Shown here: positions 18,801 through 21,800 of the stretch, piece by piece
How positions within the stretch are numbered: the stretch's first letter is position 1
Layout: the number at the start of each line of letters is the position of its first letter
NCBI GenBank assembly: GCA_046861655.1
Contig: JBHIAI010000016.1
Coordinates: 1-22,486, forward strand
Length of the DNA: 22,486 bases
Reading direction: 5' to 3'
Source of the DNA: Fidelibacterota bacterium
Lineage (GTDB): Bacteria; Fidelibacterota; Marinisomatia; Marinisomatales; S15-B10
Position numbers: made by a program

Positions 18801-21800
18801 CGCTTCCCTCACTTCCCTGAGTCCCGCTACAGGCGTGTATTTGGTGTACCCCTGGTCCATGGCCCGTTTGGCTGCCTCCCGGATGTTTTCCGGGGTGTTG
18901 AAATCCGGTTCTCCCACTCCCAGGTCGATAACGTCGATTCCTGCGCGGCGCAGTTCCGCCGCCTGGGAGGTCATTTCCAGGGTAAAGGAGGGTTGGATAC
19001 GGGCTACCCGTTTAGAAAGCACAGGGGGGTGATCCCGCCCGGGCGGGATCTAGTGGGTTCGTTTGTGGTATTCCAGGGAGTTGTAGTTGGGCTCTTTGTT
19101 CGGTCTGCGAACCCGTCGACTCCGGGGGATATCGTCCGGGGCCAATGCCTCTTTCTCCCAGTCCTCAGGCATATCTTCAACGGAGTTCTTTCTGGAAGAA
19201 GACCGCTTCAACTTCGACTCATCGAAGGAAAAATCTGCGGGATTGAATTGACTAAAGAGAGCCCCGTAGCCCTTTGTGATGCCGTTTCCGACTCCCAGGA
19301 AATTCGGAAGGACAAAATTGGTGCGGAATTCTCCTTGAAAGGCTCCCATCTGACCGTCATCCACCATTTTGGGATTAAGCGTATCCAGGTTGAGCCTTGA
19401 ATAGATTTTTGTGTTCAGGTCCAGTCCCATTTCTTTCGCCAGAAAAACAATGTTCTGGCTCAACAGCCGGCCCAAGAACTTTACCCTCTCATCCCCGTAC
19501 ATGTATCGGTACTTGCCCAGGTTGGTGTCGTTCAAGGCGATCCATGGGGTGAGAAAAGTATACCGGATCAATCGACTTGCGGGCGAGAACCGGTTGTCCA
19601 CCACTTCCACGTCCACACCATCCACCTCGAAAGTAATATTTCCGAAATTCATGATCTTAATCTTCTGGGCGACAGACTGGATGGGCTCCACCCCCTCCTT
19701 GATGCCCACAAAATAGATCTGTTCGTTTAAGATCTTTACCTGAACCCTGGGGTACAGAAACCGTTCGCGGTAACTGCCGTCGATCAGGGGGACGATGGGT
19801 TCGTCCTGGAAGTCCCGCATGATGACCCCCTTTACCTGGTAGGGTGTCTTTCGAACAGGCTTGTCGGTTCCGATGCGGGCAACGATGGACTTAATGGGGT
19901 GGGAATTCTTGGACATGAAAGGGCAGCCGGCCTAGGAAATCGCTACCATTACTGGCTCATGGTGTCCAGGAACTCTTGGTTAGCACTGGTCCGCTTCATG
20001 CGGTCCAGGAGAAACTCCATAGCCTCAATGGGAGTCATCTCGTTAAGAATCTTTCTAAGAATCCAGACTCTTGCAAGTTCTTTTTTGGACAGTAGAAGTT
20101 CCTCCTTCCGGGTTCCGGATCGGATGAGATCGAAGGAAGGAAATATCCGCCTGTCGCTCAGGCGCCGGTCGAGGACCAGTTCCATATTGCCCGTCCCTTT
20201 GAACTCTTCGAAAATGACGTCGTCCATACGGCTTCCGGTGTCGATAAGAGCGGTGGCAATGATGGTGAGACTCCCTCCTTCTTCCGTGTTTCTCGCCGAT
20301 CCGAAGAACCGCCGGGGGCGGTGGAGGGCATTGGCGTCAATACCGCCAGAAAGGATCTTTCCGCTGTGGGGGACCACCGCATTGTGAGCTCTGGCCAACC
20401 GGGTGATACTGTCCAGCAAAATCACGACATCGGAGCCGTATTCCACCATTCTCTTGGCTTTCTCCAAAGCCATGTGGGCCACCTGGACATGGCGCTCGGG
20501 CTGTTCGTCAAAGGTCGAACTGATCACCTCTGCCCCAACGTTTCGCTGCATGTCTGTGACCTCTTCGGGGCGCTCGGCAATGAGGAGGACGATGAGTTTG
20601 ATTTCGGGATGATTGGTCGTGGTGGCGTTGGCGATTTTCTGGATTAGAATGGTCTTGCCCGTTTTTGGCTGAGCCACGATAAGGCCCCTCTGACCCTTGC
20701 CGATGGGTGCCATAAGATCGAGAATCCTCATGGAAAAGCCTTTGGGAGATGTTTCCAGGCCGATCTTTTCCGTGGGGTAAAGGGGTGTCAGATTATCGAA
20801 CAGGGTGGTCTGCTTGACTTTAGCCGGAGCCACATTATTGACCGACTCCACCTTCAACAGGGCATAGAAGCGCTCGTTGTCCTTGGGGGGCCGGATCTGT
20901 CCGGAAATGAGATGTCCTGTTCTGAGTCCAAACCGCTTGATCTGGGACGGGGAGATGTAAATGTCGTCGGGTCCCGGAAGATAATTGTAGTTCCGGGACC
21001 TCAGGAAACCGTATCCCTCGGGCATCACTTCCAGTACACCCGTGGAGAACATGCGTCCCTCCTTCTCGGCGCTCGTTTCCAGGATCTTCACGATAAGATC
21101 CTGTTTTTTTAGTCCCGAGTACCCGGGCACCTGAAGCTCCTGAGCGAGCTGGGTAAGCTCCTTGATCTTCAAACCTTGCAGTTCATTAATATCCATAGCG
21201 ATGTACGAGTTTAAGGTGAAAAGTTCTGGATCTGGTGGAAAAACTCTAAACAGACAGCGATTTCGGCGGTCGCAATTAATTTAGACTAATTCATTTCTTT
21301 GTCCAAGGAAAAACCAAATTCATCATAGACGCCCCCGGCAATGTAGTGCGAACCAAAGATCAGCCAGATATCCCGAGAAAGTCTGTCGTCGAACCGACAC
21401 TGGAGGGCATCCGCCAGGCCGGGTGCGGGCTCGGCTGTGACCCCCCACCGGGTGAGCTCATCTGCCAGGACCCGCGGCGGGAAGAAATCCGGCTCATCCG
21501 GAACGGTGGTGATGACGTGAATGTCATGTTCCTGAAGCAATCTGGCCATGGGTTCTACGGTCTTTGTCCGCTTAAGGGCACAAACAGCGCCCACGCTTTT
21601 TCCCGGAAAAAGTTCCCCCAAGGTGGTAATCACGGCCTGTAACCCATGAGGATTATGAGCCACATCGTAGTACACGGGGGGATTGATGGAAAGCTTCTGA
21701 AGTCTGCCTGGCCACCTCACCTTCTTAAGTCCCCTTCGGAAATGCCCATACCCGGATCCGGGGTCGAAAACCCGGCAGGTGGCAACAGCCGTCTGGGCAT

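Follow-up and report, generated by a model that had tools for sequence, protein, structure and literature searches.

A Cas6b-family gene without the catalytic histidine pair, kept behind rho in Fidelibacterota

The locus and its Cas6b-family protein

The DNA studied here is a stretch of 22,486 nt from a bacterium of the phylum Fidelibacterota (Marinimicrobia, SAR406), which we call the window (contig JBHIAI010000016.1, positions 1 to 22,486); relatives with a named source agree with this phylum. It contains a block of genes on the minus strand, in the order folC-like, rho, Cas6b-like gene, aminotransferase, rpmE, prfA and prmC. The first of them has a Mur-ligase fold and we take it to be folC-like. 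The features of this block are the following:

21286..22389, minus strand: Mur-ligase-fold gene upstream of rho, probably starting past the window edge (family search)
21278..21305, minus strand: sigma70-like promoter 5' of rho, TGGACA-16-TAAATT (motif search; 3 found against 3.4 expected, not above chance alone)
19949..21196, minus strand: rho, 415 aa, without N-terminal insertion domain (ORF and family search)
19917..19948, minus strand: 32-nt spacer between rho and the Cas6b-like gene, with neither promoter nor terminator called inside (signal calling)
19050..19916, minus strand: Cas6b-derived gene, 288 aa, protein P0001 (ORF, Pfam, PDB match, AF2 model, Foldseek)
19254..19895, minus strand: double-RRM (RAMP) Cas6b core, residues about 8-221 (Pfam 8-101 and 114-220; pLDDT 88-97 over 11-220)
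19767..19799, minus strand: loop residues 40-50, P43-L44-I45 followed by a clade-specific G47-x-Y-R50, at the H-N-H site of type I-B Cas6b (sequence comparison)
19263..19295, minus strand: glycine-rich loop GVGNGITKGYG, residues 208-218, with N211 in place of the K usual in CRISPR Cas6b (sequence comparison)
19053..19253, minus strand: order-specific C-terminal extension, residues 222-288, of mixed charge (comparison with relatives)
19113..19136, minus strand: mid-tail motif D[IV]P[KR][SP][RK], residues 261-268, 35-50 residues past the core (63 of 74 relatives)
19053..19088, minus strand: terminal motif N[FY]NxxxYHxxxH, residues 277-288 (motif counts in relatives)
17838..19022, minus strand: class I/II aminotransferase (aspC-like), next gene downstream (family search)
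17605..17826, minus strand: rpmE (L31), then prfA and prmC (all three named by sequence inspection, with no family search)

An earlier note on this DNA had reported the 288-aa ORF in the same orientation as rho, and both are reproduced, together with the 32 nt that separate the rho stop (19949) from its ATG. Elsewhere in the window a MotA/ExbB-like and a MotB/OmpA-like gene form a pair at 8919-10581 (minus strand), beside dtd and dnaE by inspection.

P0001 belongs to the Cas6b family of proteins (PF17955/PF17262). Its two Pfam domains score above their curated cut-offs: Cas6b_C with E 1.7e-25 (89.9 bits, cut-off 39.4) and Cas6b_N with E 1.2e-9 (38.6 bits, cut-off 25). Its sole significant solved sequence relative is the Cas6b of Methanococcus maripaludis (PDB 4z7k), which matches residues 28-220 with E 1.6e-22 for the single sequence and 2.2e-46 with a profile of 66 sequences; the value of 2.4e-61 given earlier came from a different profile. 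The AF2 model, built with 66 orthologues, has pLDDT 86.0 and pTM 0.81. Its best Foldseek match is again 4z7k (E 5.9e-17, TM 0.81 by target), followed by Csf5 and other Cas6; all its structural neighbours are RNA-binding RAMPs. The Atlas model agrees with it. Full-length homology to Cas6b, as claimed before, is thus found in domains, sequence and fold alike, and the protein has the double RRM/RAMP fold with the G-rich loop in its C-terminal part, at residues 208-218. By the features tested it is not a type I-B crRNA nuclease, an enzyme that cuts repeat RNA so that an 8-nt 5' handle is left, as we describe below.

Distribution, descent and absence of CRISPR-Cas

The Cas6b-like gene is present as a single copy in 98 of 201 Fidelibacterota/SAR406 genomes and in 69 of the 87 genomes of the order; P0001 itself was matched in 58 of 61 relatives. 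These numbers come from a profile search of the phylum, which gave 102 genomes at E<=1e-45. The 98 at E<1e-50 are counted as carriers, and four with only a weaker CRISPR-type match are left out (three checked in context, G088 by score). All 18 non-carriers in the order belong to family f12, with genomes of 0.8-1.1 Mb. Rho is found in 198 of the 201 genomes. At 11 of 20 non-carrier rho loci, from six families, the aminotransferase follows rho without an intervening gene, and no diverged remnant of the Cas6b-like gene was found. The lineages of loss are f12, f17, f18, f20, G168, g61, g59, f24, f26, f27 and f29. Such clean losses indicate that Rho works without the Cas6b-like gene. The gene is old, vertically inherited and repeatedly lost, hence dispensable. 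It had been called a core or housekeeping gene, which goes too far, since only 98 of 201 genomes have it and it was lost repeatedly while rho stayed.

Two carriers deserve a comment. In genome G092 a frame change at about residue 175 interrupts the rho-linked gene (L096:5103-5672), due to a sequencing error or to an ongoing loss. A 2.3-kb contig labelled Sulfurimonas (L129, DTVI01000095.1) has the rho-linked gene at 58% identity and is probably a mis-binned SAR406 contig.

The position of the gene is very constant. Rho lies immediately upstream in 79/79 and 80/80 loci, two overlapping sets chosen by protein match, in agreement with the conserved pair that was claimed earlier. The aminotransferase adjoins on the other side in only 60/78 and 72/77 loci, and folC precedes rho in 42/50 and 73/73. 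The link to rho therefore outlasts the other links.

The rho-linked proteins make up one clade. When the histidine segment is left out of the alignment a single branch sets them apart (SH-aLRT 94), they are separated from the CRISPR Cas6b of the phylum with support 100/96, and the drawn tree has no histidine-bearing row inside their clade. Their tree tracks the host families: 33 of 38 strong splits are common with the Rho tree and 4 are in conflict. The core has dN/dS values of 0.012-0.174 in 16 of 19 pairs with finite dS, lower than those of the aminotransferase in 11 of 13 pairs. The gene is under purifying selection.

We have found no CRISPR-Cas system in this genome, as the earlier note had stated. 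No array emerged when all 198 contigs were scanned by k-mers; the four candidates were all two-copy or of low complexity. Family searches for Cas1, Cas2, Cas7, DevR, Cas5, RAMP and the PF01881 Cas6 had no match, nor did 16 Cas proteins of relatives used as tblastn queries. There is no cas8b, cas7, cas5 or cas3 beside the gene: its neighbours are rho and the aminotransferase. The PF09704 (Cas5) search is of limited sensitivity, as it missed the Cas5 of the relative G094. Since the genome is only 92.8% complete, stronger evidence for independence from CRISPR lies in the relatives.

Among these, Cas1 is found in 50 of 201 genomes of the phylum and in 20 of the 98 carriers, so that 78 carriers have no Cas1 match. 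Three carriers with few contigs (G184 and G159 with one each, G199 with two) have no match to Cas1, Cas2, Cas7, DevR, Cas5, RAMP or a second Cas6, nor any Cas6b-type array. Whether carriers have CRISPR-Cas had been left aside in the earlier note; most of them have no Cas1, and these three have none of the cas families searched. Carriers with a type I-B system possess a separate, histidine-bearing Cas6b. Of 15 Cas6b copies of the phylum that lie away from rho, 11 adjoin Cas8b, and two have arrays in view. The one-contig carrier G084 lacks the same cas families, yet it has an orphan array of nine repeats and a second solo Cas6, and for this reason it is no clean case. Its array (G084:C1, about 2064200-2064800; L197:10150-10900) is part of an island that is free of cas genes over 20 kb, and the 37-nt repeat of the array is identical to that of the L088 type I-B array.

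From the Cas6b-type repeat of this orphan array and from the 20 carriers with Cas1, one could consider that the protein still serves CRISPR or defence in trans, cutting or retaining crRNA on behalf of orphan arrays and transient systems. Such a role is highly improbable when set against the 78 carriers without Cas1 and the Cas6b that type I-B loci bring with them. Matches to the repeat handle in this genome, G184, G199 and G159 are also single and near control level, the two in this genome falling inside long coding frames, and the family has no match in phage or viral collections. We consider it very probable that the Cas6b-like gene has a domesticated role outside CRISPR.

How a cas gene may have come to lie behind rho is illustrated by the non-carrier G094 (L206:1391-9263, G094:C1). 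There an operon cas6-cas8b1-cas7-cas5-cas3 starts 128 nt behind rho. It is of type I-B (Cst/DevR), with a PF01881-type cas6 in first position and two other ORFs interspersed. As its Cas6 comes from a different family, the operon was inserted here independently; it offers a plausible present-day analogue of the founding event. In type I-B loci cas6b is the first gene (PMC5965381). The simplest history would be a similar one, in which an ancient type I-B cas6b inserted directly behind rho in early Fidelibacterota; the downstream cas genes would have decayed and the catalytic histidines been lost, with the first gene retained. As the site behind rho can receive cas operons, the adjacency itself may be a historical accident.

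Six of the 201 genomes have a second solo Cas6, of the PF01881 family (266-282 aa; L286:11421-12221 and L287-L292). Four of these genomes belong to genus g63, where the identity is 83-100%, and the others are the two genomes of f30. No cas neighbours are found within the flanks of this gene, of about 1.5 kb. In g63 it adjoins a GAF-like gene and mostly also ppdK (names by inspection). It is possibly a second, younger domestication, in a sub-lineage of this phylum, which suggests that events of this kind recur. Contig G028:C12 (L207:1203-3017) has a weak second Cas6b-like gene of 227 aa, followed by an ORF that looks like a reverse transcriptase by inspection and by cas1, upstream of an array of 18 repeats.

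The altered core and the C-terminal tail

In the Cas6b of M. maripaludis (4z7k/4z7l; PF17955 and PF17262) the residues H38 and H40 are catalytic, and the double change H38A/H40A drastically cuts activity (PMC3479195). The family described here resembles it in full-length sequence and fold, in the G-rich loop and in the Y49-P50, Q, K and PW motifs, which the rho-linked proteins have kept. It differs by the absence of the H38/H40 pair. The H-N-H or histidine pair is present in 15 of 15 non-rho Cas6b copies, whereas a histidine at either catalytic column is found in none of 79 rho-linked copies. The loop alignment around these columns is gappy in the larger set, which still has no conserved histidine inside the loop. 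The pair is also absent from the 25 library proteins that fall inside the rho-linked clade; a source is named for one of them, and it is Fidelibacterota.

Other positions have drifted too. The R24 column has R in 113/113 histidine-bearing Cas6b and K60/R13 in the rho-linked set; the Y47 column has Y in 102/113 and F50/Y10, respectively. The K/R of the G-loop, present in 109/113 histidine-bearing proteins, is N in 67/73 of the rho-linked ones. At the same time the latter have gained the basic residues R50 and R57 (68/73). Further differences from the M. maripaludis protein are the absence of a cas operon or array, the fixed place behind rho, the vertical single-copy inheritance and the tail.

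The loss of the histidines is no proof of lost cutting. The Cas6 of Sulfolobus solfataricus (Sso1437) has no catalytic histidine and still cuts, relying on K25, K28, K51 and R231 (PMC3652601); histidine-free cutting by Sulfolobus Cas6 is also mentioned in PMC5965381. It shares with our family the basic residues near the G-loop, but it is described as an active crRNA nuclease of a CRISPR-bearing genome (PMC3652601) and belongs to a distant family (Foldseek TM about 0.3-0.45). A housekeeping endoribonuclease could be imagined on this model, with K29, R50, R57, K61 and K/R215 as a basic cluster, perhaps assisted by tail histidines; these basic residues and the G-loop are conserved in the rho-linked set and the core is as tightly conserved as that of an enzyme. 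We find it quite unlikely: R24, Y47 and the G-loop lysine have drifted, in Cas6b itself the activity depends on the two histidines (PMC3479195), and the histidines of the tail are absent from deep-branching members and lie in a terminal motif modelled with pLDDT of only 51-55. P0001 is probably an RNA binder with little or no cleavage. The proposal of the earlier note that it binds rather than cuts is likely, with the reservation that a Cas6 such as that of Sulfolobus cuts without histidine.

Precedents for Cas6 proteins that bind RNA with little cutting are the Pyrococcus paralogues (PDB 3ufc, 'Cas6-related gene', and 3qjj), described as non-catalytic binders which bind repeats. They differ in that their hosts are CRISPR-rich archaea, whereas ours is found across a phylum, inside an operon of housekeeping genes. 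One may also think of a RAMP fold that serves as a mere protein scaffold, with no RNA ligand, as several RNA-contact positions have changed and our searches for an RNA target were empty. With basic surface residues kept or gained, the G-rich loop intact and only RNA-binding RAMPs as structural neighbours, the chances of this are very small.

The C-terminal tail is limited to the order and has a length of 67-142 aa among relatives, with mixed charge. It had been described as basic and disordered, which does not hold for the charge and holds only in part for the disorder: P0001 has 14 K/R and 13 D/E in its tail, and residues 241-270 appear partly ordered (pLDDT 67-85), with low values at 231-240 and 271-288. 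Among 74 relatives the net charge of the tail is negative in 32, neutral in 21 and positive in 21. Its motifs are more constant. An NP motif adjoins the core in 68 of the 74 tails, D[IV]P follows 35-50 residues into the tail in 63, and the terminal [FY]N...[YF]H is found in all of them. The full terminal motif is unique to the Cas6b-like gene in the six frames of the genome. The earlier statement that no histidine is invariant is correct for the core, but not for the tail of the order, which ends in YH followed by the last histidine, with HxxxH in 74 of 79 proteins. A constant end motif on a variable linker resembles a docking peptide, as far as its sequence pattern can suggest.

The relation to Rho and possible roles

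The evolutionary rates of the branches give a mixed picture. Rho rates have a partial correlation of 0.40 (0.26-0.53) with those of the Cas6b-like gene, 0.12 with the aminotransferase and 0.18 with folC. The Cas6b-like gene is correlated with the aminotransferase at 0.43, as strongly as with Rho. No column of Rho has changed consistently across the independent loss lineages; the nearest one, S226A, is found in 10 of 20 non-carriers, but it varies among carriers too. No co-lost partner was found among Hfq, RNase E/G, CsrA, SelA, Jag and RNase J.

The one conserved DNA signal of the locus is the rho promoter. The sequence TTTGAC is present in 69 of 121 rho leaders, against 6.3 expected, and many relatives have TTGACA at the promoter. 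In relative L187 contigs from RNA libraries cover the gene in 4 of 4 runs (three studies), with no silent-stretch control, and one of them bridges the end of rho and the start of the Cas6b-like gene. We did not detect any conserved cis-acting RNA: the entropy at fourfold sites is flat across six genes of the operon, and the window has no Rfam match. Between promoter and rho start the leader (21197-21275) is pyrimidine-rich and G-poor, as one would expect if Rho were loaded there for autoregulation.

From these data we tentatively favour the following reading, which is possible but falls short of probable: the protein may be a dispensable, cleavage-poor RNA-binding accessory factor of Rho-dependent termination, derived from an inserted cas6b. 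The gene is presumably co-transcribed from the rho promoter. The retained Cas6 surface would grip short hairpins or single-stranded motifs on cellular transcripts, and cutting would be weak or absent. The protein might then shield or present Rho loading sites. In the added tail of the order the middle part might pack on the core, and the terminal YHxxxH on its variable linker might recruit a partner. That it acts with Rho specifically is a guess for which we have limited confidence. A more detailed version would make the protein a subunit-like specificity factor of the Rho machine: its core would recognise a particular RNA motif in transcripts as they emerge, and its YHxxxH tail peptide would tether it to the Rho ring or to RNA polymerase. 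This version is unlikely as it stands.

The protein could also be an RNA-binding regulator or chaperone unrelated to Rho, acting for example on translation or on structured RNA, and merely inserted behind rho and using its promoter. The gene is dispensable while rho is universal, the cas6-led operon of G094 shows that insertions occur at this site, and in its rates the gene is tied to the aminotransferase as closely as to Rho. In addition, the 32-nt spacer of this genome has no Shine-Dalgarno-like run, so the gene may depend on the translation of rho, which would hold the pair together. We nevertheless judge this explanation somewhat unlikely, because no relocated copy appears among 159 locus views, despite the shuffling of both other neighbours, and because none of the six candidates named above is lost along with it.

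Accessory factors of Rho such as NusG, Rof/YaeO, Psu and Hfq are well known. The likeness is limited to the proposed role, tuning the access of Rho to RNA; they have no relation to the Cas6b-like protein in sequence or fold. If it does work with Rho, the protein would be a new class of termination cofactor. Should the reading with a motif-reading core and a tethering tail be true, Rho termination in a common ocean phylum would be programmed by sequence.

Other CRISPR-derived RAMP proteins are kept in single lineages. HRAMP, ARAMP and the Streptomyces I-E/STAND systems are modules of this kind that lack arrays and adaptation genes (PMC8730458). From the same source, they have several genes, include nucleases and are predicted to act in defence, whereas here a single Cas6 lies in a housekeeping block of a genome where searches for RAMP and Cas7 were empty. 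Where Cas proteins are known to have been re-used, it is mostly within defence or mobile elements, and the part of this 2022 exaptation review considered here names no solo Cas6 in a housekeeping operon (PMC8730458). In full-text searches, which covered main articles and few subscription journals, no description of the rho-linked family was found. In roughly half of the SAR406 genomes sampled, an immune component appears to have been turned to everyday tasks on RNA. New in this work are the phylum-wide Cas1 cross-count, the checks in closed genomes, the mapped losses, the G094 analogue, the counts of tail motifs and the second solo Cas6. A single Cas6 fixed in a housekeeping operon for the age of a phylum would represent a clear case of a part of CRISPR entering core RNA metabolism, and the family offers a natural Cas6 scaffold without histidines. 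Labels such as 'CRISPR-associated endonuclease Cas6' in SAR406 (e.g. MFQ6618139.1) are no sign of a CRISPR system.

A further peculiarity is found in the spacers between rho and the Cas6b-like gene. The motif GGTGTAG(CAA) is present in 29 of 128 spacers, against 0.2 expected, and is absent in the locus described here. These spacers (e.g. L132, L137, L156, L168, L173 and L181) belong to one subgroup of the order, and the motif often lies 15-30 nt before the start. It is separate from the ribosome-binding site and could be a duplicated Shine-Dalgarno sequence or a binding site.
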